DNA from: Candidatus Limnocylindria bacterium
GTDB taxonomy: Bacteria; Chloroflexota; Limnocylindria; P2-11E
DNA: 64,000 bases
Direction: 5' to 3'
Assembly (NCBI GenBank): GCA_036564905.1
Contig: DATCOD010000194.1
Span: 7,240-71,239 of the forward strand
Part shown: in pieces, positions 4,671-53,268 of the stretch
How the letters are laid out: the number at the start of each line of letters is the position of its first letter
Position numbering within the stretch: the first letter of the stretch is position 1
The notes under the pieces: model-generated
Database searches by the model: none
Seen by the model: only the letters and a program-made list of their open reading frames with translations
Told to the model about the DNA's origin: nothing
Made by a program: the position numbers and the translations under genes

Positions 4671-5740
4671 AGACCGACCGCGCGGGGTTCGTGTGGGACC
4701 CGCGGCTCGCGTCCCACGTCTACCGCGCCGACCATCCGTTGAAGCCGAGGCGGCTCATCGGCGTGCATGACCGGCTCGAGCAGCTCGGCGCGTTCGGGCG
4801 CCCGAACGCCGTCCTCCTCGAGCCACGCGAGGCGACGATCGCCGAGCTCGAGCGCATCCACTCGCCGGAGTACGTGCGTGCCGTCGTGCAGGCCTCGGGC
4901 GATCCGGACCGTGACTACTCGCGCTGGGGCCTGTCGGCCGGTGGCGACACACCGCCGTTCACGGGTATGCACGAGGCGTCGCTCCTCACGACCGGCGGGA
5001 CGCTCCGCGGCATGGACGCGGTCCTCGCGGGGGACCTCCGCGTCTCGTTCAACGGAGCAGGCGGGCTGCACCACGCGATGCGCGGCCGCGCCTCGGGCTT
5101 CTGCATCTACAACGACCCCGCGATCGCCTGCGGACTGCTCGCCGATCGCGGCCTCAAGGTCGCGTACGTGGACATCGACGCGCACCACGGCGACGGCGTG
5201 CAGGCCGCGTTCTACGACACCGATCGGGTCCTCACGATCTCGCTGCACGAGACCGGACGCTCGTTGTTCCCGGGCACCGGCTTCGCCGACGAGCGGGGGA
5301 CCGGCGCGGGCGCTGGCTACAGCATCAACGTCGCGCTGCCGCCGTACACCGACGACCGCGCCTACACGACGGCGTTCGACGCGGTCGTGCCGCCGCTCGT
5401 CGAGCGCTTCCGGCCGGACGTGCTGGTGACGCAGCAGGGGATCGACTCGCACTTCAGCGACCCGCTCACGCACCTCCAGGTCTCCACGCGCGCGCGCGAG
5501 CACGTCGTCCGCGCGTTCCGCGGCTTCGACCTGCCCTGGGTCGCGATGGGTGGGGGCGGCTACGACCTCGATGCGGTCGCGCGCGGCTGGTCCATCGAGT
5601 ACCTCGTCATGCTCGGCGCGCCGGTGCCCGACGAGCTCCACGATGCCGATCCGCCGGAGTGGACCGGCGACGAACGCGACTCGATCGACATCGCGACGGA
5701 CGTGGCGGTCCAAGACGCGCTCGCGGCGGCGTTCCGTTGA
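4637..5740 (+). CDS. Histone deacetylase superfamily protein (acetoin utilisation AcuC / acetylpolyamine amidohydrolase-like)
   Basis: 'FVWDPRLASHVY...HPLKPRR', 'GGLHHAMRGRASGFCIYND', 'YVDIDAHHGDGVQAAF' are HDAC zinc-site motifs. Start inferred as the GTG just upstream of the thyX stop. Confidence 0.75.
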   Translation: MARAHGDARALKTDRAGFVWDPRLASHVYRADHPLKPRRLIGVHDRLEQLGAFGRPNAVLLEPREATIAELERIHSPEYVRAVVQASGDPDRDYSRWGLSAGGDTPPFTGMHEASLLTTGGTLRGMDAVLAGDLRVSFNGAGGLHHAMRGRASGFCIYNDPAIACGLLADRGLKVAYVDIDAHHGDGVQAAFYDTDRVLTISLHETGRSLFPGTGFADERGTGAGAGYSINVALPPYTDDRAYTTAFDAVVPPLVERFRPDVLVTQQGIDSHFSDPLTHLQVSTRAREHVVRAFRGFDLPWVAMGGGGYDLDAVARGWSIEYLVMLGAPVPDELHDADPPEWTGDERDSIDIATDVAVQDALAAAFR

Positions 5741-40270: not shown

Positions 40271-41370
40271 GCCGCGGCCGCCTTGAAGATCGAATCGATC
40301 GCGGCGACGACGCGGCCGTTCTCGGCCGGAGTTCCGATCGATACTCGCAAGCACCGGTCGCAACCGGGCCACGACGACACGTCGCGGAGCAGGATGCTGT
40401 GCTCGAGGAATTTCGCGTGCACCTCGGCGGGGGTCCGATCGGCGAGCCGGAAGAGGATGAAGTTGGTGACCGACGGGAACGCCTCGACCCCCGGCGCGCG
40501 CTGGAGCGCCGCGTAGACGCGGTCGCGCTCCCTCGCGCACTGCGCGATCCGCCGCGCGACGTCATCGTCGCGTTGCGCGATCCGGCCGCCGACGACCGTG
40601 GTGAGCGGGCTCACGTTATATGGCAGCTGCACGGCACGGAAGATCTCCGCCACGCGCGGGTGCACGATCAGCAACCCGAGACGGAGCCCCGCGGCGGCGC
40701 GCACTTTCGAGAAGGTCTTGGTCACGATGATGTTCGGATGCGCCGGCATGGCCGGAACGATCGTGTTGCCCGCGAAGTCGCTGTAGGCCTCGTCGACGAG
40801 GATCACCGTCTCGGGGTATCGCTCCGCCGCCGCCAGGATGATCGCGTCGTCGATGAGATTCCCCGTCGGATTGTTCGGCGTCGTGAAGCACACGATGTGC
40901 GGCTTCGCCCGGTCCAGCGCGGCGAGCACGCGCTCCTTGGTCACGAGATACGGAAGGCCGATGTGCTCCTCCGCGACGGTGCCGCCGGCGATCTGCGTGA
41001 GCCGGCCGTGCATCGTGTACGTCGGCTGGAAGAGCAGCGTGCTGCGGCCATGCCCGCCGAAGACGAGGAACACGTTGAGGAGCACCTCGTTGCTCCCGTT
41101 GCCGAAGATGAGCTGATCGGCCGCGACGCCGAAGCGTTTCGCGAGGCTCAGGCGCAGGTCCGCGCTCGCCTGCGCGGTCGGATAGCGGTTGAGGAGGATC
41201 GCCTCGAGCTCGGCGGGCGACAAATAGGCGCTGACCGGGTTGGGCTCGGCCCACTCGTTCGCGTTCACCCTGACGTCGGCCGCCATCTGCTGCGTGCGGT
41301 ACGCCTGGAACGCCCCGAGGTCGTCGCGCGGGCGGGGCAGCTGGTCGCTCACCTTCATAGCCTGCCACAC
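40267..41370 (-). CDS. hisC: Histidinol-phosphate aminotransferase
   Basis: 'ANEWAEP', 'FTTPNNPTG', PLP-Lys region 'TKTFSKVRAAAGLRLG'. Start may be the internal M at 41358. Confidence 0.85.
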   Translation of the reverse strand: MWQAMKVSDQLPRPRDDLGAFQAYRTQQMAADVRVNANEWAEPNPVSAYLSPAELEAILLNRYPTAQASADLRLSLAKRFGVAADQLIFGNGSNEVLLNVFLVFGGHGRSTLLFQPTYTMHGRLTQIAGGTVAEEHIGLPYLVTKERVLAALDRAKPHIVCFTTPNNPTGNLIDDAIILAAAERYPETVILVDEAYSDFAGNTIVPAMPAHPNIIVTKTFSKVRAAAGLRLGLLIVHPRVAEIFRAVQLPYNVSPLTTVVGGRIAQRDDDVARRIAQCARERDRVYAALQRAPGVEAFPSVTNFILFRLADRTPAEVHAKFLEHSILLRDVSSWPGCDRCLRVSIGTPAENGRVVAAIDSIFKAAAA

Positions 41371-43268: not shown

Positions 43269-44455
43269 CGCGGCCCGCCGGTCAGCGCCGCGATGACCGC
43301 TTCGAGCTCGCGCGCGACCCCTTCGTACTCCACGTGCCCGTCGTCGATCACGCGGGCGCGGCGGACATCCTGGCCCGCGCCCTCCGCGATATCGCCGATC
43401 GCGACCGCGATGCCGGCGCCACGCAGCGCGACCGCGACCCGGAGCGTCGTCGCGTCGTCGACGTGCGGCGCGAGGAGCAGGAGCGGCGACTCGGCCTGCG
43501 CCTGCCACCCCGCGGCGACGAGGGCCTGGTGCAGATGGGGGACCGCGATCCCGAAGCCCGTCGCCGGTCGATCGGCGCCGAACCGGGCGAGGAGGCCGTC
43601 GTACCGTCCACCGGCCGCGATCGGGAATCCGAGATCCGCGACGGTGACCTGGAACACCACGCCGGTGTAATACGGGAGCGCCGGAACGAGCCCGAGGTCG
43701 AACCGGACGGCGCCACCGGCGCCGGCCGCCTCGAGGAGCGGCCGAAGGGCATCGAGCGTGTCGAGCGCGCTCTGCGACGCCGCGGGCGCGCCGGCGCGGG
43801 CGCCGGCGAGATCCGCCGACCGGTGGCGAAGGCCGCGCTCGAGCGCCGCGCCACGAGCGGCGCTCAGGCCCGCCGCGCGCGCGAGCGACAGCGTGCCGAC
43901 CAGATCCCCGCTGCGCGCCGCGGCGCTCACCCCCGCGCGCGCATCGGCCGGGAGCTCCGCGATGAAGCCGTCGAGGAAGCCGACATGACCGATGTCGATA
44001 TCCGGTGCGAGCAGCCCGCAGCGCGCGAGCGCGTCGGCGAGCAGCGCGATGACCTCGGCGTCCGCGCGCAGGGTCGCGTCGCCGATCAGCTCGACGCCCG
44101 CCTGGTCGTATTCGCGCTCCGATCCACGCATGGAGGCCTCTTCGCGGAAGATCGGCGCGAAGTACGCGAGCCGCAGCGTCGCGTCGGCTTGCCGGTAGCG
44201 CTGCGCGACCACGCGCGCCACCGCGGTCGTGACATCGGGACGGAGCGCGAGCAGCTGACCATCCCGATCGAGGAACCGCAGCGTGCGCCGCTCGTCCACC
44301 GTGATCGCGCCCTGCGCGAACTCCACCGTCGGCGGCTCGAGCGGCACGTAGCCGTAGCCGGCGAACGCGTTCATCAGCGTGCGCTCGATCACGTGAAGCT
44401 CGCGCGCCTCCGTGGGCAGGATGTCGCGGAAGCCGCGGGGGAGCGCGTTCTTCAC
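43265..44455 (-). CDS. hisZ: ATP phosphoribosyltransferase regulatory subunit (HisRS paralog)
   Basis: 'LPRGFRDILP' and 'YFAPIFREE...REYDQAGVELIG' are class II aaRS-like core motifs. No anticodon-binding domain. Lies directly upstream of the short hisG. Confidence 0.8.
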   Translation of the reverse strand: MKNALPRGFRDILPTEARELHVIERTLMNAFAGYGYVPLEPPTVEFAQGAITVDERRTLRFLDRDGQLLALRPDVTTAVARVVAQRYRQADATLRLAYFAPIFREEASMRGSEREYDQAGVELIGDATLRADAEVIALLADALARCGLLAPDIDIGHVGFLDGFIAELPADARAGVSAAARSGDLVGTLSLARAAGLSAARGAALERGLRHRSADLAGARAGAPAASQSALDTLDALRPLLEAAGAGGAVRFDLGLVPALPYYTGVVFQVTVADLGFPIAAGGRYDGLLARFGADRPATGFGIAVPHLHQALVAAGWQAQAESPLLLLAPHVDDATTLRVAVALRGAGIAVAIGDIAEGAGQDVRRARVIDDGHVEYEGVARELEAVIAALTGGPR

Positions 44456-45267
44456 GCGGGCTGCGGGAAGGCGTCGACGCGTTCGAGGCCTCCCACCGCT
44501 GCGCGAAGCTCGTGGAGCGCGCGGATCCGCGCATCCGGGACGATCGTCCCGGCGGCGCCACCGTTCGTCCGGTCGAGCCAGATGCTGCGCAGCCCGGCAC
44601 GCCGCGCGCCCACGACGTCACGCTCAAGGCTATCTCCGACCATCACCGCCTCGGTGCGCTCGACGTCGAGCGCGTCCAGCGCCGCGCGGAAGATCAGCGG
44701 ATCGGGCTTGCCCGCGCCGACCTCGCCTGAGATCACGATCGCGGCGAATCGCGATGCGAGCGTGGTGGCCGCGAGCTTCTCGCGCTGCACGTCCGGCGCT
44801 CCGTTGGTGACGAGGGCGAGCCGGTGATCGCGGCCGACATCGTCGAGCGTCGCCTCGGCCTCGGGGTCGATCGGACACAGGGCCCGGCGCGCCGTGCGAT
44901 ACACCGCCACGAGCTCGTCGGCCAGCGCGCCATCCGTGATGCCCGCGGCCTCGAGTCCGCCGCTCCAGACCGCGCGGCGGAAGCCCGGCACGTACCGGCG
45001 CAGCGCCGCGAGGCCCGGCTGGTCGCCGGCGAACTCACCCCAGAGCGCCTCGCCCCACCAGATCCCCAGCGCATCCGCGTACGCGAACACTTCCGAGGAG
45101 CGGAAAAGTGCCTCCGCCGTCTCACCGGCCGCGACCTGAATGACACCGCCGTCGACCCCGGCCCGGCGGGCGGCGTGCGCGCTCGTCTGCTCCAGCGCAC
45201 GGAGGGTGGCCTCATCTTCGAGCAGCAGGGTGTTGTCGAGGTCGAAGAGGATCGCGCGGATCGGCAT
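44452..45267 (-). CDS. HAD-superfamily (subfamily IA-like) hydrolase, first gene of the his operon
   Basis: 'ILFDLDNTLL' (DxDxT motif I), 'LVTNG' (motif II), 'GKPDP...MVGDSLERDVVGARRAG' (motifs III/IV). Confidence 0.75.
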   Translation of the reverse strand: MPIRAILFDLDNTLLLEDEATLRALEQTSAHAARRAGVDGGVIQVAAGETAEALFRSSEVFAYADALGIWWGEALWGEFAGDQPGLAALRRYVPGFRRAVWSGGLEAAGITDGALADELVAVYRTARRALCPIDPEAEATLDDVGRDHRLALVTNGAPDVQREKLAATTLASRFAAIVISGEVGAGKPDPLIFRAALDALDVERTEAVMVGDSLERDVVGARRAGLRSIWLDRTNGGAAGTIVPDARIRALHELRAAVGGLERVDAFPQPA

Positions 45268-45344
45268 TGGTCGAGTTTAGGGAGCGGAGCGCGTGTCCGG
45301 CCGAGGGCTTGGCCGCGGTGCGCCGCAGTGGTACCGTAACGGCG

Positions 45345-45431
45345 ATGCGCTCCGTCGTCCTCGGCATCATCGTTATTGAGTCCCTTATCGGGGGCTTGAA
45401 CGACGCTGGGAGGCGCACCACCACCGCGTAG
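45345..45431 (+). promoter_or_regulatory. Leader peptide ORF 1 (MRSVVLGIIVIESLIGGLNDAGRRTTTA), a Val/Leu/Ile-rich attenuator leader
   Basis: Read directly from sequence. Eight of eleven codons after Met-Arg-Ser encode Val/Leu/Ile. The peptide overlaps the antiterminator segment 'ctgggaggc'. Confidence 0.7.
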
Positions 45432-45457
45432 CGAGAACAGAGACCGGAACCACCAGA

Positions 45458-45486
45458 GACCTCCCAGGACATGGGAGGTCTTTTTG
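45458..45486 (+). terminator. Rho-independent terminator of attenuator 1
   Basis: 'gacctccca ggacat tgggaggtc ttttt' is a perfect 9-bp GC-rich stem followed by a T-run. The 5' half can alternatively pair with 'tgggagg' inside the leader ORF, forming an antiterminator. Confidence 0.7.
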
Positions 45487-45584
45487 ATTCCGGGAAGTTC
45501 AGGCGAGGGAGGGCGTTGCCCGACCGAGCCGCAAGGGACCCACGAACGGAGCAAGCCGCAGCTGGCGAAGAGAGAGGGACACAA

Positions 45585-45779
45585 ATGGATGCCCGACGCG
45601 AGCTGGCCAAGCGACTGGCAAGGCTGGGTATGCACTTCGAGGGCGAGCGCCTCGACCATGCCGAGCGGATCGTCCACGCGCATGTTCCGCATCACACCTC
45701 GCTCACCGACCTGGTCCTCATGACGATCTGCGTCGAGGCCTACCGCAAGAGCGACCTCGACCTGCCGGCCTGGGTCTGA
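45585..45779 (+). CDS. Conserved small protein (64 aa), paralog of the ilvC-leuA intergenic small protein; function unknown
   Basis: 'MDARRELAKRLARLGMHFEGERLDHAERIVHAHVPHHTSLTDLVLMTICVEAYRKSDLDLPAWV'. RBS 'gagaggga' 7 nt upstream. About 50% identical to the 49659-49844 ORF. Confidence 0.65.
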   Translation: MDARRELAKRLARLGMHFEGERLDHAERIVHAHVPHHTSLTDLVLMTICVEAYRKSDLDLPAWV

Positions 45780-45789
45780 ACCGGTAGCC

Positions 45790-46380
45790 ATGGACGATCA
45801 GGCCGGGCGCACGTACGCGATCGCGTTCCTCGGCGAGGCGCGCACGCCGATCAGGACATCGGTGGTGCGGCTCGGCGCGGACGACGATCCGCGGGTCGTC
45901 GCGGAGTCGCTGCGCCACGCGGAGTCCGACCGGCTGAGCGATCCGATCCTGTCGGCGGGCCTAGGCGGGCCTCGGGATCCGGAGCGCTCCCTTCATCTGA
46001 CGGCGCTCCACGCGGAGCAGGCCGTCCGGCTCGGCCGCGCGTTGAACGGTCCCGGGCGCGTCACCGCGTTCGCGGACCTCGGCCCGTACTGCTTCGTGCT
46101 CGGCCGGCCGACGGAGGAGATCCGGATCTTCTGCCGGACGATCCTCGGGCCGCTGGCCGAGAGCGCGCAGCGCGACGAGCTGCGCACGCTCGAGGAATTC
46201 CTCCGGGCCCACGGGAGCGTGAACGCGGTCGCCCGCGCGCTCTTCCTGCACCGGAACACCGTGCGTCAGCGTCTCAAGCGGATCGGCGAGCTCACCGGCG
46301 CCGACCTCGAGGACGCCGACCAGCGCATGCAGCTCTACCTCGCGGTCCTCGGCCAGAACGCCCTGCGGGCGCTGGCGTGA
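45790..46380 (+). CDS. PucR/CdaR-family transcriptional regulator (C-terminal HTH_30)
   Basis: C-terminus 'LRTLEEFLRAHGSVNAVARALFLHRNTVRQRLKRIGELTG' is the PucR-type HTH. Starts 8 nt after the small-protein stop. Confidence 0.7.
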   Translation: MDDQAGRTYAIAFLGEARTPIRTSVVRLGADDDPRVVAESLRHAESDRLSDPILSAGLGGPRDPERSLHLTALHAEQAVRLGRALNGPGRVTAFADLGPYCFVLGRPTEEIRIFCRTILGPLAESAQRDELRTLEEFLRAHGSVNAVARALFLHRNTVRQRLKRIGELTGADLEDADQRMQLYLAVLGQNALRALA

Positions 46381-46460
46381 TCGGGACTGTGCAGAGTGCA
46401 CCGACTTCCAGGTGGAGCGTTGACGCGACCGCGGTCCGTCCGGCACTGTCCACCTTCCTG

Positions 46461-46535
46461 ATGCGGAACCTCGTGGTCGTCGTCCTTATCGGCATCGTCC
46501 TCATTGAGGACGAGGGGAGACGGCTGGGAGGCTAG
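46461..46535 (+). promoter_or_regulatory. Leader peptide ORF 2 (MRNLVVVVLIGIVLIEDEGRRLGG), the ilvB attenuator leader
   Basis: Twelve of fourteen codons after Met-Arg-Asn are Val/Leu/Ile. The stop lies inside the 'ctgggaggctag' antiterminator arm. Confidence 0.75.
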
Positions 46536-46562
46536 CGGCACACACCACGGACCATGCGAGCA

Positions 46563-46593
46563 AGGCCTCCCGGCAACGGGAGGCCTCTTTGTT
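46563..46593 (+). terminator. Rho-independent terminator of the ilvB attenuator
   Basis: 'aggcctccc ggcaac gggaggcct ctttgttg'. The alternative pairing of 'gcctccc' with 'gggaggc' in the leader gives an antiterminator. Confidence 0.7.
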
Positions 46594-46627
46594 GTCCAGG
46601 ACAGAGATGGATGAAGGAGGCACCGCG

Positions 46628-48337
46628 ATGGCGACACTTGCGACGACCGAGCTGCCCGAGGCGAGCACCGTCGTTCACCGCGGCGCCGACCTGGTCTGGC
46701 GGGCCCTCGAGCACGCCGGCGCGGACGTGGCGTTCGGCTACCCCGGTGGCGCGTGCCTGCCGCTGTACGACGCGCTCCCCGATCACCCGCGCGTGCATCA
46801 CGTCCTCGTGCGCCACGAGCAGGGCGCCGCGCACATGGCCGACGGCTACGCGCGCGCGACCGGACGGGTCGGCGTGTGCGTCGCCACCTCCGGCCCCGGC
46901 GCGACCAATCTCGTGACCGGGCTCGCCTGCGCATACATGGACAGCGTGGCGCTGGTCGCGATCACCGGCCAGGTCTCCACGCCGATGATGGGCCGGGACG
47001 CCTTCCAGGAGACCGACGTGCTCGGCATGGTCGGGCCGATCACCAAGCATTCGTTCCTCGTCGAGCGGGTCGAGGACATCGAGCCCACGATCGCGCGCGC
47101 GTTCGAGGTGGCGCGCGCGGGCCGCCCCGGACCGGTGGTGGTCGACATCCCGAAGGACATCCAGCTCCGGACCGCCACGGCGCGCTCCCGCCCGACAGAC
47201 CCGACGACCGCTCCGCAGGGCGCCGACGCGAGCGAGCTCGATCGGGCGGCGGCGCTGCTCGCGTCCGCGCGGCGGCCGGTGATCATCGCCGGCCACGGCG
47301 TGCGCCTCGGGCGCGCCCACCGCGAGCTGCGCGCGCTCGCCGAGCGCATCGACGCGCCGGTCGTGACCACACTGCTCGGCATCGGCGCGATCGCCGAGGA
47401 CCATGCGCTCGCGGCCGGGATGCTCGGGATGCACGGCAGCGCCAACGCGAACCGCATGGTGAACGACGCGGACGTGATCCTGGGCGTGGGGCTGCGCTTC
47501 GACGATCGCGTGACCGGGAAGATCAGCGCCTTCGCGCCGAACGCCAAGATCATCCATGCCGACCTCGACGCGACCCAGATCGGCAAGAACGTGCCCACCG
47601 CGATCGGCATCGTTGCCGACGCGGGAGCGGTGCTGTTCGCGCTCGCCGCCCGCCTCCAGCGCGTGTCGCGGCCGGACTGGTCCGGACGTCTCGCGACCGC
47701 TCGTTCCCGCCCGCGGCTCGCGGCATACGAGGACCGGGTCGAGCTCCCGCCGCGCCTGGTCATCCGCGCGATCCGTGAGACCGCGAGCGACGACGCGTAC
47801 TTCGTCGCCGACGTGGGTCAGCATCAGATGTGGGCCGCGCAGCATCTGCGCCTCACGAACCCGGACCGGTTCCTCACCTCGGGCGGCCTCGGCGCGATGG
47901 GCTATGCCCTGCCGGCCGCGATCGGCGCGCAGATGGGCCGGCCGACGTCAGAGGTGTGGGCCATCGCCGGCGATGGGGGCGCGCAGATGACGTTCCAGGA
48001 GCTCGGGACCGCGGTGCAGGAGCGCACGCCGGTGAAGCTCGCGATCATGAACAACGGCTACCTCGGGATGGTCCGCCAGTGGCAGCAGCTGTTCCACGAC
48101 GGTCGGATCTCACAGACCCCGATCAGCAGCCCGGACTACGTGAAGCTCGCCGACGCGTACGGCGTGCTCGGCATCATGGTCGACCGTCGCGCCGACCTCG
48201 GCCCCTCGCTCGCGCGCGCTCGCGCGCACCAGGGGCCCGTCGTGCTCGACATCCGCATCGAGCGCGAGGCCAACGTGTGGCCGATCGTGCCGCCTGGCGG
48301 CGCGAACGCGGACCTCATCGAAGAGCCGGTCTCGTGA
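46628..48337 (+). CDS. ilvB: Acetolactate synthase (AHAS) large subunit
   Basis: 'GYPGGACLPLYDAL', 'RHEQGAAHMADGYARATGRVGVCVATSGPGATNLVTG', TPP motif 'GDGGAQMTFQELGTA...NNGYLGMVRQWQ'. RBS 'gaaggagg' 8 nt upstream of the ATG. Confidence 0.9.
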   Translation: MATLATTELPEASTVVHRGADLVWRALEHAGADVAFGYPGGACLPLYDALPDHPRVHHVLVRHEQGAAHMADGYARATGRVGVCVATSGPGATNLVTGLACAYMDSVALVAITGQVSTPMMGRDAFQETDVLGMVGPITKHSFLVERVEDIEPTIARAFEVARAGRPGPVVVDIPKDIQLRTATARSRPTDPTTAPQGADASELDRAAALLASARRPVIIAGHGVRLGRAHRELRALAERIDAPVVTTLLGIGAIAEDHALAAGMLGMHGSANANRMVNDADVILGVGLRFDDRVTGKISAFAPNAKIIHADLDATQIGKNVPTAIGIVADAGAVLFALAARLQRVSRPDWSGRLATARSRPRLAAYEDRVELPPRLVIRAIRETASDDAYFVADVGQHQMWAAQHLRLTNPDRFLTSGGLGAMGYALPAAIGAQMGRPTSEVWAIAGDGGAQMTFQELGTAVQERTPVKLAIMNNGYLGMVRQWQQLFHDGRISQTPISSPDYVKLADAYGVLGIMVDRRADLGPSLARARAHQGPVVLDIRIEREANVWPIVPPGGANADLIEEPVS

Positions 48338-48591
48338 CCGACCCGCAGCACACCTTCGAGCTCACGGTCGACGCCGTGCCCGGCGCGATCGAGCGCGTGC
48401 TGTCGGTCGTGCGCCGCAGGCGGCTCGGCCTGCGCTCGTTCCGGGCGGACGCCGGCAGTCAGGGGCAGTGGAACGTCCGCATCGAGGCCGGCGCCGTCCC
48501 AACGGAAGCGGCCCTTGCGCTCAGACAATTCGCATCGCTCATCGACGTTCGCAACGCGCGCCTGTCCGATGGCGATCGCACCGCGAGCTAA
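48334..48591 (+). CDS. ilvN: Acetolactate synthase small subunit, short ACT-only form (85 aa)
   Basis: 'HTFELTVDAVPGAIERVLSVVRRRRLGLRSF' is the ACT domain of IlvN/IlvM. GTGA overlap with ilvB. Confidence 0.65.
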   Translation: MTDPQHTFELTVDAVPGAIERVLSVVRRRRLGLRSFRADAGSQGQWNVRIEAGAVPTEAALALRQFASLIDVRNARLSDGDRTAS

Positions 48592-48609: not shown

Positions 48610-49659
48610 ATGGCCACCATCTATTACGACAAGGACGCGGATCCGCGGGCGCTGGCCGGCAAGACGATCGCCGTGATCGGCTACGGGAGCCAGGGCCACG
48701 CCCACGCCCAGAACCTGCGCGACAGCGGGCACTCCGTCGTCATCGGCCTGGCCGCCGGCAGCAAGAGCTGGGCGACCGCCGAGCGGGACGGCTTCGACGT
48801 CCGCGAGGTTGCGGACGCCGCGCGCAACGCCGACGTGATCGTCATCCTCGTGCCTGACCCGAAACATCGGTCGGTCTATGAACGGATCGCGCCGTCGCTC
48901 GGGCGCGGGCGGACCATCGTCGTGGCGCACGCGTTCTCCGTCCATTTCAAGGAGATCGTCGCGTCGCCCGACATCGACGTCGTGCTCATCGCGCCGAAGG
49001 CCCCGGGGCACCGGATGCGCGAGCTCTTCGTCGAGGGCAAGGGCGTGCCCGCGCTCGTCGCGGTGCACCAGGACGCCAGCGGCCACGCCAAGCAGACGGC
49101 GCTCGCGTACGCGCAGGCCGTCGGCTCGACGCGCGCGGGCGTCATCCAGACCACGTTCGCGGAGGAGGTCGAGACCGATCTCTTCGGCGAGCAGACGGTC
49201 CTGTGCGGCGGTATCTCCGAGCTGGTGAAGGCCGGTTTCGAGACCCTGGTCGAAGCCGGCTACCAGCCGGAGATCGCGTACTTCGAGTGCCTGAACGAGA
49301 TGAAGCTCATCGTCGACCTCATGTACGAGGGCGGGCTCTCGTACATGCGGTACTCGGTGAGCGACACGGCCGAGTACGGCGACTACGTGTCCGGCAAGCG
49401 GGTCATCGACGCGCGCGTTCGGCAGACCATGCGTGACGTGCTCGCCGAGATCAAGGACGGCAGCTTCGCCAAGCGGTGGATCGCCGAGGCCCGGGCGGGT
49501 GCGCCCGAGCTGCTCGCGACGCGTGCCCGCGAGCAGGACTCCCAGATCGAGCGGGTCGGACGATCGCTCCGCTCGATGATGCCCTGGCTCCCGAAGCGCG
49601 AGTTCGGCCAGCCCGCGGCGCCGGACGCGCCGAAGCGCGAGACCGCGGGGGTCGCGTAA
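48610..49659 (+). CDS. ilvC: Ketol-acid reductoisomerase
   Basis: '[21 protein letters not shown]', 'LVPD', 'GHRMRELF', '[17 protein letters not shown]'. Strong RBS 'gcaggaggaagag'. Confidence 0.95.
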
Positions 49660-49844
49660 TGGAGGCGTTCCGCGACCGGCTCGCGCGGCTCGGCATGCGC
49701 TTCGGCGACGAGCAGCTCGGCCACGCCCACTCGCTGGTCACGCGCTACGGATTCGTCCCGGAGGAGCTCACCGACATCCAGCTCATGACCATCTGCGTCG
49801 AGGCCTACCGCCATCCGGATTCCGACCTGCCGTTGTGGATCTGA
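49659..49844 (+). CDS. Conserved small protein (61 aa), paralog of the 45585-45779 ORF; translationally coupled between ilvC and leuA
   Basis: '[61 protein letters not shown]'. Its ATG overlaps the ilvC TAA (TAATG). Confidence 0.65.
   Translation: MEAFRDRLARLGMRFGDEQLGHAHSLVTRYGFVPEELTDIQLMTICVEAYRHPDSDLPLWI

Positions 49845-53268
<3,424 letters not shown>

Follow-up and report, generated by a model that had tools for sequence, protein, structure and literature searches.

Leader-peptide attenuation is usually described as purely local control of the enzymes encoded directly behind the leader, and the classical attenuators of branched-chain amino acid (BCAA) genes are those of E. coli ilvGMEDA, ilvBN and leu. 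In an uncultured Candidatus Limnocylindria bacterium (GCA_036564905.1, contig DATCOD010000194.1) an attenuator of this appearance stands in front of the genes for a 64-aa protein and a transcription regulator. What does such an attenuator control, and is the regulator a controlled product in its own right or a passenger? The window analysed here is a 64,000-nt stretch of that contig, and all genes, leaders, promoters and RNA elements described below lie on its forward (+) strand.

Leader A and its predicted RNA switch

As the first-pass annotation had reported, a 28-codon ORF rich in Val, Ile and Leu codons (leader A; 45345–45431; MRSVVLGIIVIESLIGGLNDAGRRTTTA, beginning MRSVVLGIIVIESLIGG and ending in a TAG stop) is followed by a perfect intrinsic terminator (45458–45485), which consists of region 3 (GACCTCCCA, 45458–45466), a GGACA loop, region 4 (TGGGAGGTC, 45472–45480) and the run TTTTT (45481–45485). 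The terminator stem is G+C-rich and of 9 bp, extendable to 12 bp. Within the ORF lie region 1 (TCCTCGGC, 45358–45365, Val-Leu-Gly codons), an internal hairpin (GAGTCCCT/GGGGGCTT, 45378–45397) directly after the Val/Ile/Leu run, and region 2 (CTGGGAGG, 45406–45413), whose predicted partner is either region 1 or region 3; the stop codon comes 16 nt downstream of region 2. The TGGGAGG at 45407 in the ORF is complementary to the CCTCCCA at 45460. In the minimum-energy fold of the full leader A RNA the terminator forms and region 2 is paired with the Val-Leu-Gly codons; when the 5′ part is masked and the terminator's 3′ arm left out, the partner of region 2 is the 5′ arm of the terminator. The proposal that this arm has an alternative partner inside the ORF is thus borne out by both complementarity and masked folding, and terminator and antiterminator are mutually exclusive in these folds.

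The observation of an attenuator layout here is genuine, and chance is ruled out. The scaffold GGGAGG-N20–50-CCTCCC-N3–10-GGGAGG has two occurrences in the window where 0.00 are expected; none of 20 random 64-kb sequences contained a mini-ORF with at least 7/9 Val/Ile/Leu, and the window contains two such mini-ORFs with a terminator, both at the regulator/ilvB locus. About 50 loci from Limnocylindria and other Chloroflexota have a Val/Ile/Leu mini-ORF plus terminator before the regulator gene, and the attenuator layout is conserved across the class Limnocylindria. The leader ORF, on whose conservation in relatives the original reading depended, keeps its start and TAG stop in frame in at least 46 loci despite indels.

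The codon content of the leaders is distinctive. Leader A has 10 Val/Ile/Leu codons within codons 4–18, four of them rare (GTT, ATT, CTT and TTG). The share of Val, Ile and Leu is 37–44% among leader codons and 23% among the codons of the window's genes. Of the Ile codons, ATT accounts for 1.1% in those genes, as against 22% in type-A leaders and 42% in type-B leaders, the latter being those of the leader B kind described below. CTT stands at 4% in the window's genes and at 35–37% in the leaders, and the rare ATT and CTT codons are 9- to 40-fold enriched in the leaders.

Across 46 loci the terminator is paired in 92% of cells, with compensatory GC↔AU changes and far above slid controls, and the antiterminator (region 2:3) in 96.9%, with UA↔CG compensation, against 40–70% in slid controls, this covariation signal coming from the flanking pairs only and possibly reflecting few independent events. 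The GGGAGG core of region 2 is invariant across the 46 loci, and the GGGAGG/CCUCCC cores, being invariant, are therefore silent for or against pairing. A fixed-column count of the 1:2 stem gave 66% paired, not clearly above slid controls, because region 1 is out of register between clades; for this stem the column-wise test was replaced by folding each sequence separately. When sequences were folded singly, the terminator formed in 46/46 loci, the antiterminator in 44/46 with a stalled ribosome simulated, and the N-terminal segment of the ORF sequestered region 2 in 45/46. The textbook ilv/leu layout of mini-ORF, terminator and antiterminator that had been claimed for the single sequence is therefore conserved in 46 loci. 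Equivalent internal hairpins of different sequence occur in other clades (GAGCTCC..GGGGGCT, CCTTCTC..GAGAAGG and CTCCCC..GGGG), and the hairpin at 45378–45397 may be a pause or spacer element.

A promoter for leader A can be read from the sequence at 45309–45337, with a −35 box TTGGCC (45309–45314), a 17-nt spacer and a −10 box TACCGT (45332–45337), and the layout TTGrCC, about 17 nt, TAsCsT, 7–11 nt and ATG or GTG recurs at about 50 loci. A scan for promoters gave no match to the sigma-70 consensus, and the promoters given here were read from alignments only; the terminator scan listed the leader B terminator alone, although the hairpin and U-run of leader A can be clearly made out in the sequence. 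Because the leader A ATG lies 7 nt past the −10 box and has no Shine–Dalgarno sequence, the leader A mRNA is probably leaderless, with a predicted transcription start at or beside the ATG.

Searches for known elements added little. At gathering thresholds the whole window gave zero Rfam matches, so that Leu_leader, Phe_leader, the ilvB motifs and other leader families were set aside, and a permissive Rfam scan of 45250–46650 returned chance-level matches only, among them Phe_leader at 17.9 bits, where the threshold is 55. A T-box riboswitch was also rejected, its covariance model (specifier loop and T-box sequence) being unmatched in the Rfam scans. Literature searches that combined PucR with leader peptides or attenuation, or Limnocylindria with attenuation, yielded no relevant report.

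The short PucR-type regulator and sm64

The first gene behind the terminator, sm64-A (45585–45779; GC3 = 0.85), encodes a three-helix protein of 64 aa, and the second (45790–46380) is indeed a PucR/CdaR-type HTH regulator, as first annotated. The regulator is a protein of 196 aa with a C-terminal HTH_30 domain (Pfam PF13556, E = 2.1e-23, residues 131–186) and a weakly matched N-terminal GGDEF-like domain: Pfam finds no PF17853 in the window protein, this domain is precomputed for many homologues, and the N-terminal domain of the regulator model gave weak matches to 3onq and to GGDEF domains (best E = 4e-3). Among solved structures the regulator is best matched by 3onq, which represents the C-terminal half of a PucR-type protein, and the NCBIfam models CdaR, AdeR and Rv1453 match it by C-terminal parts only and far below their cut-offs. 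The N-terminal sensor domain of PucR-type proteins (about 400–550 aa) is absent from the 196-aa regulator, and its signal input may come from the attenuator instead.

About 25 representatives of the short PucR type group together as a high-scoring clade of their own. Several lineages have the regulator as the sole gene behind the attenuator, and it is therefore itself the controlled product. Paralogous regulators share the RNA scaffold, with leaders rich in Cys and Met codons, and third-position variation in these leaders supports their translation. Attenuation of all short PucR genes is ruled out, since L080, L081 and L083/L084 have no leader; L077–L079 were rejected as members, being ordinary distant HTH_30 proteins in unrelated contexts.

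The protein sm64 is found in Limnocylindria only, and sm64-A has no match in Pfam or NCBIfam. Its paralogue sm64-B (49659–49844; 61 aa, 56% identity) is encoded between ilvC and leuA, with a start that overlaps the ilvC stop. An assignment of sm64 as an IPMS post-catalytic domain (PF22615) was considered and rejected: it had no Pfam match, an NCBIfam leuA_bact match of E = 0.2 only, and no match to the window's LeuA by hhalign.

The ilv operon and its own predicted attenuator

The first-pass annotation had placed the attenuator before these two genes rather than before biosynthetic genes. This holds for the genes directly behind leader A, but ilvBNC-leuA-ilvD lies directly downstream of the regulator, as ilvB (46628–48337), ilvN (48334–48591, with an ACT domain), ilvC (48610–49659), sm64-B, leuA (about 49848–51602) and ilvD (from 51599). 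The interval first annotated, which closes at 46380, leaves out a second leader and terminator slightly beyond it, at 46461–46590 before ilvB. This leader B attenuator comprises an ORF (46461–46535, MRNLVVVVLIGIVLIEDEGRRLGG), a region 2 (TGGGAGGCT, 46525–46533) and a terminator (46563–46586) with a T-rich tail; it is homologous to leader A and heads ilvB-ilvN-ilvC-sm64B-leuA-ilvD. Because ilvBNC-leuA-ilvD, downstream of the regulator, has its own homologous attenuator, the ilv control region here is two-tier. Corynebacterium ilvBNC is controlled by leader-peptide attenuation (PMC11857589, PMC10272879), and the presence of the same scaffold before ilvB supports attenuation at our locus because the mechanism is established for ilvB in other phyla. 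The conserved layout predicts a leader B promoter at 46420–46449, with a −35 box TTGACG (46420–46425), an 18-nt spacer and a weak −10 box CACTGT (46444–46449) that ends 11 nt before the ATG.

A candidate operator and the gene it would serve

Between the regulator gene and leader B lies a perfect palindrome, GTGCAGAGTGCAC (46389–46401, given without strand; GTGCA-N3-TGCAC), likewise absent from the first-pass annotation. Its centre is about 60 nt upstream of the predicted start of the leader B transcript, and in about 45 loci a motif [AG]TGC[AG]N3[CTG]GCAC is fixed 62–72 nt upstream of the leader B start codon. We regard the palindrome as a candidate, and probable, operator of the regulator. 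It is possible, although unlikely, that the attenuator has been read correctly and that the regulator nevertheless controls other genes or acts as a repressor, the palindrome belonging to another factor: the proposed binding rests on co-location, the recognition helix is nearly identical in BCAA-type and Cys/Met-type paralogues, and a Symbiobacteriaceae contig has a similar palindrome beside an unrelated full-length PucR gene. However, the palindrome keeps to the leader B promoter even where the regulator is 3 kb away, one clade has it again within the promoter of the regulator gene itself, two loci (L008 and L004) have it at the promoter of a neighbouring ACT-DUF5612 gene, and just 22 of 134 palindrome strand hits in 647 kb fall outside these contexts. 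No palindrome is present at the type-A promoter of the window itself. Near-matches in the window at 41008, 51751 and 54829, with one mismatch each, were left uncounted; that at 51751 is in the ilvD coding sequence and the others are apparently in ORFs.

The alternative that leaders A and B are tandem attenuators of one long operon, with leader A as a first gate and the regulator as a passenger, seems to us improbable. From 45486 onward the first terminator is that of leader B at 46563, and the genes from sm64-A through the ilv genes are closely spaced on one strand, but the −35/−10 promoter and upstream palindrome between regulator and leader B are conserved in about 45 loci. Moreover, leader B has no Shine–Dalgarno sequence and is apparently leaderless, so that a readthrough copy would probably go untranslated, with termination as the outcome. 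Opposite-strand genes follow the BCAA-type regulator in L028, L014 and L020, and the Cys/Met-leader paralogues too have opposite-strand genes downstream, together with a divergent gene upstream. That the 28-codon ORF is a hydrophobic micropeptide or a small RNA gene with its own terminator, the downstream genes being separately promoted, can be given very little credence, for although the leader A peptide is hydrophobic and a transcript ending at 45485 could be a stable short RNA, the peptide sequence is poorly conserved and drifts between clades while the richness in Val/Ile/Leu, the use of rare codons and the complementarity of region 2 persist, Cys/Met codons replace the hydrophobic run in paralogous loci on the same scaffold, that scaffold also precedes ilvB, and no conserved promoter-like block was seen between 45486 and 45585.

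Proposed mechanism

We consider it probable that a BCAA attenuator controls sm64-A and the short PucR regulator, and that the promoter of the ilv operon, itself attenuated, is in turn likely under the control of this regulator. The response of leader A to tRNA charging is deduced from its sequence, and would proceed as follows. Transcription would start at or beside the leader A ATG to give a leaderless mRNA. With Val-, Ile- and Leu-tRNAs charged, the ribosome would traverse the 28 codons, region 2 would be covered by the ribosome or re-paired with region 1, the hairpin at 45458–45480 and the U-run would form, and transcription would end at about 45485. With low charging, the ribosome would stall at the Val/Ile/Leu codons, among them several rare ones, and mask region 1; region 2 would then pair with region 3 (CCUCCCAG), no terminator would form, and sm64-A and the regulator would be transcribed. 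The regulator would most likely bind the palindrome upstream of the leader B/ilvB transcript. The position of the palindrome and the weak −10 box suggest that the regulator is an activator of the leader B promoter. BCAA shortage would accordingly raise the regulator first and then act again at the ilv leader, in a feed-forward relay, and the amino acid supply that the ribosome senses probably determines how much of a transcription factor, and not of the enzymes alone, is made.

More tentatively, and with chances that we put slightly short of even, the arrangement could be a modular relay, in which sensor-less short PucR paralogues stand behind leaderless leaders of differing specificity (Val/Ile/Leu or Cys/Met), each converting its readout into a trans signal that meets a second attenuator in a feed-forward AND gate. 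Such a relay would activate the promoters of biosynthetic operons with a matching attenuator, namely ilvBNC-leuA-ilvD and a ThrC-like gene with a Met leader.

Relation to known systems

The attenuation mechanism itself is classical. Leader A shares with the classical BCAA attenuators a short Val/Ile/Leu-rich ORF, four predicted pairing regions, a terminator that competes with an antiterminator and rare regulatory codons, and leader B, like them, precedes ilvBNC. In contrast to them, leader A heads a transcription regulator and a 64-aa protein rather than enzymes, its mRNA is apparently leaderless, it matches no Rfam leader, and it occurs in Chloroflexota.

A regulator under an attenuator is not unprecedented, since the mycobacterial transcription factor gene whiB7 lies behind an Ala-enriched uORF with a terminator and antiterminator, and WhiB7 feeds back on aspC (PMC10274678). 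In both systems, on our reading, transcription of the factor is set by ribosome stalling in a uORF whose composition gives the specificity, and the factor acts on biosynthesis of that same amino acid. The differences are that the factor here is a short PucR-type HTH protein and not a WhiB Fe-S protein, that the amino acids would be BCAA (Cys/Met in the paralogues) and not Ala, and that the target operon has its own matching attenuator, making two tiers, with no known link to antibiotics. Mycobacterial leaderless polycysteine short ORFs also sense the tRNA charging of one amino acid (bioRxiv 10.1101/834739), and resemble leader A, as read here, in that the sensory ORF stands first on a leaderless mRNA and in a design shared by several loci; our locus differs in its clear intrinsic terminator and in having a regulator as the product. 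In B. subtilis, anti-TRAP (rtpA) is induced by uncharged tRNA-Trp via a T-box (PMC10327191, PMC4027176), which likewise makes the level of a regulatory protein dependent on tRNA charging and adds a second layer of control to an amino acid operon, but there the T-box RNA binds tRNA directly, whereas here a leader would be translated, and anti-TRAP is a protein antagonist, whereas the factor here would bind DNA. Finally, PucR/CdaR regulators (B. subtilis PucR, E. coli CdaR and C. glutamicum GabR) usually activate adjacent operons (PMC7652997). The regulator described here shares their C-terminal HTH_30 domain and, weakly matched, their GGDEF-like domain, but at 196 aa it is without their N-terminal sensor domain.

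Biological implications

At this locus the device is conserved class-wide before a sensor-less DNA-binding regulator, and paralogues of that regulator carry leaders for other amino acids. If our reading is correct, the ribosome's readout of tRNA charging would be broadcast via a transcription factor and integrated with that of a second attenuator, local to the target operon, so that a cis-acting sensor of tRNA charging would become a trans-acting signal. The single well-studied case, whiB7, would thereby be extended to another family of regulators, to other amino acids and to another phylum, and leader, regulator and 13-bp operator would make up a compact set of parts. For a lineage that is abundant in soil and freshwater but uncultured, it would also provide a first handle on amino acid regulation.

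Organization of the regulator locus

The leader preceding the regulator gene (leader A) lies in a window of 71% G+C; the neighbouring gene, on the minus strand (44452-45267), is divergent and encodes a HAD hydrolase. The plus strand then carries a promoter-like pair read from the sequence (TTGGCC, 45309-45314, and TACCGT, 45332-45337, separated by a 17-nt spacer), a 28-codon ORF (MRSVVLGIIVIESLIGGLNDAGRRTTTA, 45345-45431) starting seven bases past TACCGT, a hairpin GACCTCCCA-GGACA-TGGGAGGTC (45458-45480) followed by TTTTT, a 64-aa ORF (sm64-A, 45585-45779) and the gene for a 196-aa regulator with a PucR-type C-terminal HTH (45790-46380; PF13556, E = 2e-23). The leader ORF includes region 2, CTGGGAGG (45406-45413, plus strand). 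In folds of the complete leader A RNA the terminator forms and region 2 pairs with the early Val-Leu-Gly codons (z = -3.3 versus shuffles); with the 5' part masked and the terminator 3' arm absent, region 2 pairs instead with CCTCCCAG of the terminator 5' arm. Masking here stands in for a stalled ribosome, which would leave region 2 free for that arm. The first-pass annotation had described a Val/Ile/Leu-rich ORF of 28 codons followed by a terminator, with alternative pairing of region 2; sequence and folding bear out this description, and the mutually exclusive terminator and antiterminator were both obtained, from the full and the masked RNA respectively.

Such an arrangement is not expected by chance. 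Twenty random 64-kb sequences yielded no mini-ORFs with at least 7/9 Val/Ile/Leu, compared with two followed by a terminator in the window, both at this locus, and the scaffold GGGAGG-N20-50-CCTCCC-N3-10-GGGAGG occurs twice in the window versus 0.00 expected. Four of the ten Val/Ile/Leu codons of leader A (GTT, ATT, CTT and TTG) are rare, each making up 1–4% of the codons for those residues in the window genes. No Rfam family matches the leader attenuators. Leader A is probably a Val/Ile/Leu leader-peptide attenuator, for which we propose the same mechanism as in classical ilv/leu attenuation.

The second leader, also on the plus strand, begins 80 bases past the regulator stop codon (leader B ORF, MRNLVVVVLIGIVLIEDEGRRLGG, 46461-46535) and is homologous in layout to leader A, with its own region 2 (TGGGAGGCT) and terminator (46563-46586). 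This attenuator as a whole (46461-46590) is directly upstream of ilvB and is kept in about 45 loci; behind it, on the same strand, are ilvB, ilvN, ilvC, a 61-aa sm64 paralogue whose start overlaps the ilvC stop (49659-49844), leuA and ilvD. The earlier statement that leader A precedes a small protein and a regulator rather than biosynthetic genes therefore holds for what lies directly behind it, but ilv genes with a second attenuator adjoin, which places the regulator inside a two-tier ilv/leu control region and not apart from biosynthesis. Wherever sm64 was found it is 3' of a Val/Ile/Leu attenuator, be it leader A or leader B. In one related locus (L007, about 4890-4990), sm64 is separated from the regulator by a further, second mini-ORF of the Val/Ile/Leu kind (MLALVLVVIVIPVLIGG...), which suggests that leader and sm64 were inserted as a unit upstream of an older leader and regulator.

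Conservation of the leaders

Homologues of the regulator, about 200 aa long, come from MAGs of Candidatus Limnocylindria and other Chloroflexota. When 1.84 billion representatives were searched with a profile, these short PucR proteins came out as a small clade of their own: only 25 representatives reach E <= 1e-30, and the PucR proteins ranked below them are ordinary ones of about 550 aa. The N-terminal sensor domain typical of the PucR family is absent from the regulator; the top match of its structure model (pLDDT 71, N-terminal domain confident) is 3onq, a structure of the C-terminal half of a PucR-type protein, and GGDEF domains come next.

Among 79 loci taken from species-representative genomes, most have ilvB(-like) and ilvC genes downstream of the regulator. 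A script scan found a Val/Ile/Leu-rich mini-ORF and terminator 5' of the regulator in about 50 loci, so that the leader ORF, on whose conservation in relatives the first-pass annotation had let its reading depend, is indeed conserved; the scan found another such pair 5' of ilvB. The peptide differs by clade (MRSVVLGIIVIE..., MSQPIIVIVPVDLLVLEK..., MALVIVLIVPV..., MSRELVLIVIVELPIL...), but the Val/Ile/Leu run, the open frame between start codon and TAG, region 2 (GGGAGG) and the CCTCCC-loop-GGGAGG terminator are kept. ATT accounts for 22% of Ile codons in type-A and 42% in type-B leaders versus 1.1% in genes, and CTT for 35–37% in both types versus 4%. Type-A, type-B and Cys/Met leaders alike end in TAG followed by C.

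In 46 aligned type-A leaders the terminator is paired in 92% of cells (35–65% in slid controls), with GC<->AU compensation at two pairs, and the antiterminator, in which region 2 pairs with the terminator 5' arm (region 3) about 55 nt away, in 96.9% (40–70% in slid controls), with UA<->CG (26 versus 11) and CG/UA/GC exchanges at its flanking pairs. Folded singly, 46/46 form the terminator at minimum energy, 45/46 sequester region 2 by the N-terminal ORF segment and 44/46 form the antiterminator in the simulated stalled-ribosome fold. In a column-wise test of the stem between regions 1 and 2, region 1 was out of register between clades.

Type-A start codons lie, in every clade, 7–11 nt past a TAnnnT-like -10 box that is paired with a TTGrCC -35 box about 17 nt upstream; the 7–11 nt spacing recurs at the other leader types, and neither these nor the type-A starts have a Shine-Dalgarno sequence (fetched loci; window 45309-45347 and 46420-46463). 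Together these features imply a leaderless or nearly leaderless mRNA with a predicted transcription start, a layout resembling that of mycobacterial sensory short ORFs (10.1101/834739).

The regulator as the probable attenuated product

As judged from comparison of loci, the controlled product of the attenuator is the regulator. Opposite-strand genes follow the BCAA-type regulator in three relatives (L028, L014 and L020). A paralogous regulator group, 46–50% identical (L039, L047, L049-L053, L056-L061, L063, L064, L067, L068, L071 and L072), shares the terminator scaffold about 150 nt upstream (about 150–280 nt upstream of the regulator match), but its 30-codon leader ORF is a distinct and conserved one with many Cys and Met codons, such as MLYRCCAMAMPEAHCTCVCAMGDHGLGGGS; between-species changes in this ORF fall at third codon positions. 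These Cys/Met-type regulator genes are monocistronic, flanked by a divergent leuB-like gene on one side and convergent genes on the other. A few kb away on the same contigs, a Met-rich leader with the same scaffold (MVQRISMSMPMAPMAGPATRLGG in L039) precedes a ThrC-like PLP enzyme with a zinc-ribbon N-terminus; such a leader, with its terminator, stands before this enzyme in L050 (8488-8640, MAQRSSMSMPMAPMAGPATRLGG) and in L042, L045, L046, L048, L058, L061, L067 and L068 as well.

Of the more distant short PucR proteins, one has a BCAA leader (L082), two have a Leu/Val-rich mini-ORF (L086 and L087) and three had no leader when one was looked for (L080, L081 and L083); coupling of leader and regulator is thus specific to certain subclades. 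In L086 (about 855-930) and L087 (about 12-72) the mini-ORF MPSVDLVLVLVLLRSLEEGV and a hairpin GAAGGCCTCC...GGAGGCCTTC stand at the 5' end of the short PucR gene, and the public gene call overruns the hairpin.

A candidate operator

The ilvB-leader promoter has a good -35 and a poor -10 box, and 18 nt separate its -35 box from a perfect palindrome farther upstream, GTGCAGAGTGCAC (46389-46401). Searched on both strands of 647 kb of loci, the pattern [AG]TGC[AG]N3[CTG]GCAC gave 134 strand hits. Of these, 88 (about 45 loci) keep a fixed distance of 62–72 nt from the leader B start codon, on its upstream side; 24, all in one clade, fall within the promoter of the regulator itself, between -35 and -10; and 22 lie elsewhere, including ACT-DUF5612 gene promoter sites in L008 and L004. 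By the usual logic of comparative genomics, the palindrome is a candidate operator of the regulator; the weakness of the -10 box and a palindrome centred at about -60 both suggest activation, and the regulator would thus act as an activator at the ilvB-leader promoter. We regard the step from regulator through palindrome to ilv promoter as evenly poised.

In some relatives (L008 3972-4715; L004 2861-4581; L003 1760), the stretch from the HAD gene to the regulator locus also contains the palindrome, at promoters of genes for an ACT + DUF5612 protein, a DUF4395-thioredoxin protein and an NMT1-like binding protein. These genes are possible additional members of the regulon, and the window has none of them in that interval. 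A related half-palindrome occupies the corresponding position in the Met-leader promoter, with a conserved TTGTGCAACCTGCCCGA about 22 nt upstream of -35, and the recognition helix is near-identical in BCAA-type and Cys/Met-type regulators. In a Symbiobacteriaceae contig (L077, 5464), GTGCACTGTGCAC lies directly behind a full-length 597-aa PucR-type gene, a hint that the half-site GTGCA may be recognized more widely in the PucR family.

Relation to known systems

An attenuator upstream of a regulator is supported at the sequence and comparative level, but the principle has precedent. The closest is whiB7, an attenuator-controlled transcription factor gene whose uORF, enriched in Ala, determines specificity and whose product acts back on aspC (PMC10274678). 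A conceptual relative is anti-TRAP, whose induction runs through a T-box (PMC10327191). In our literature searches, no paper linked leader-peptide attenuation to Limnocylindria or to regulators of the PucR type. As read from the sequences compared here, the system is different from known cases in its regulator family, its phylum, its paralogues with other amino-acid specificity and its two-tier wiring with a conserved candidate operator.
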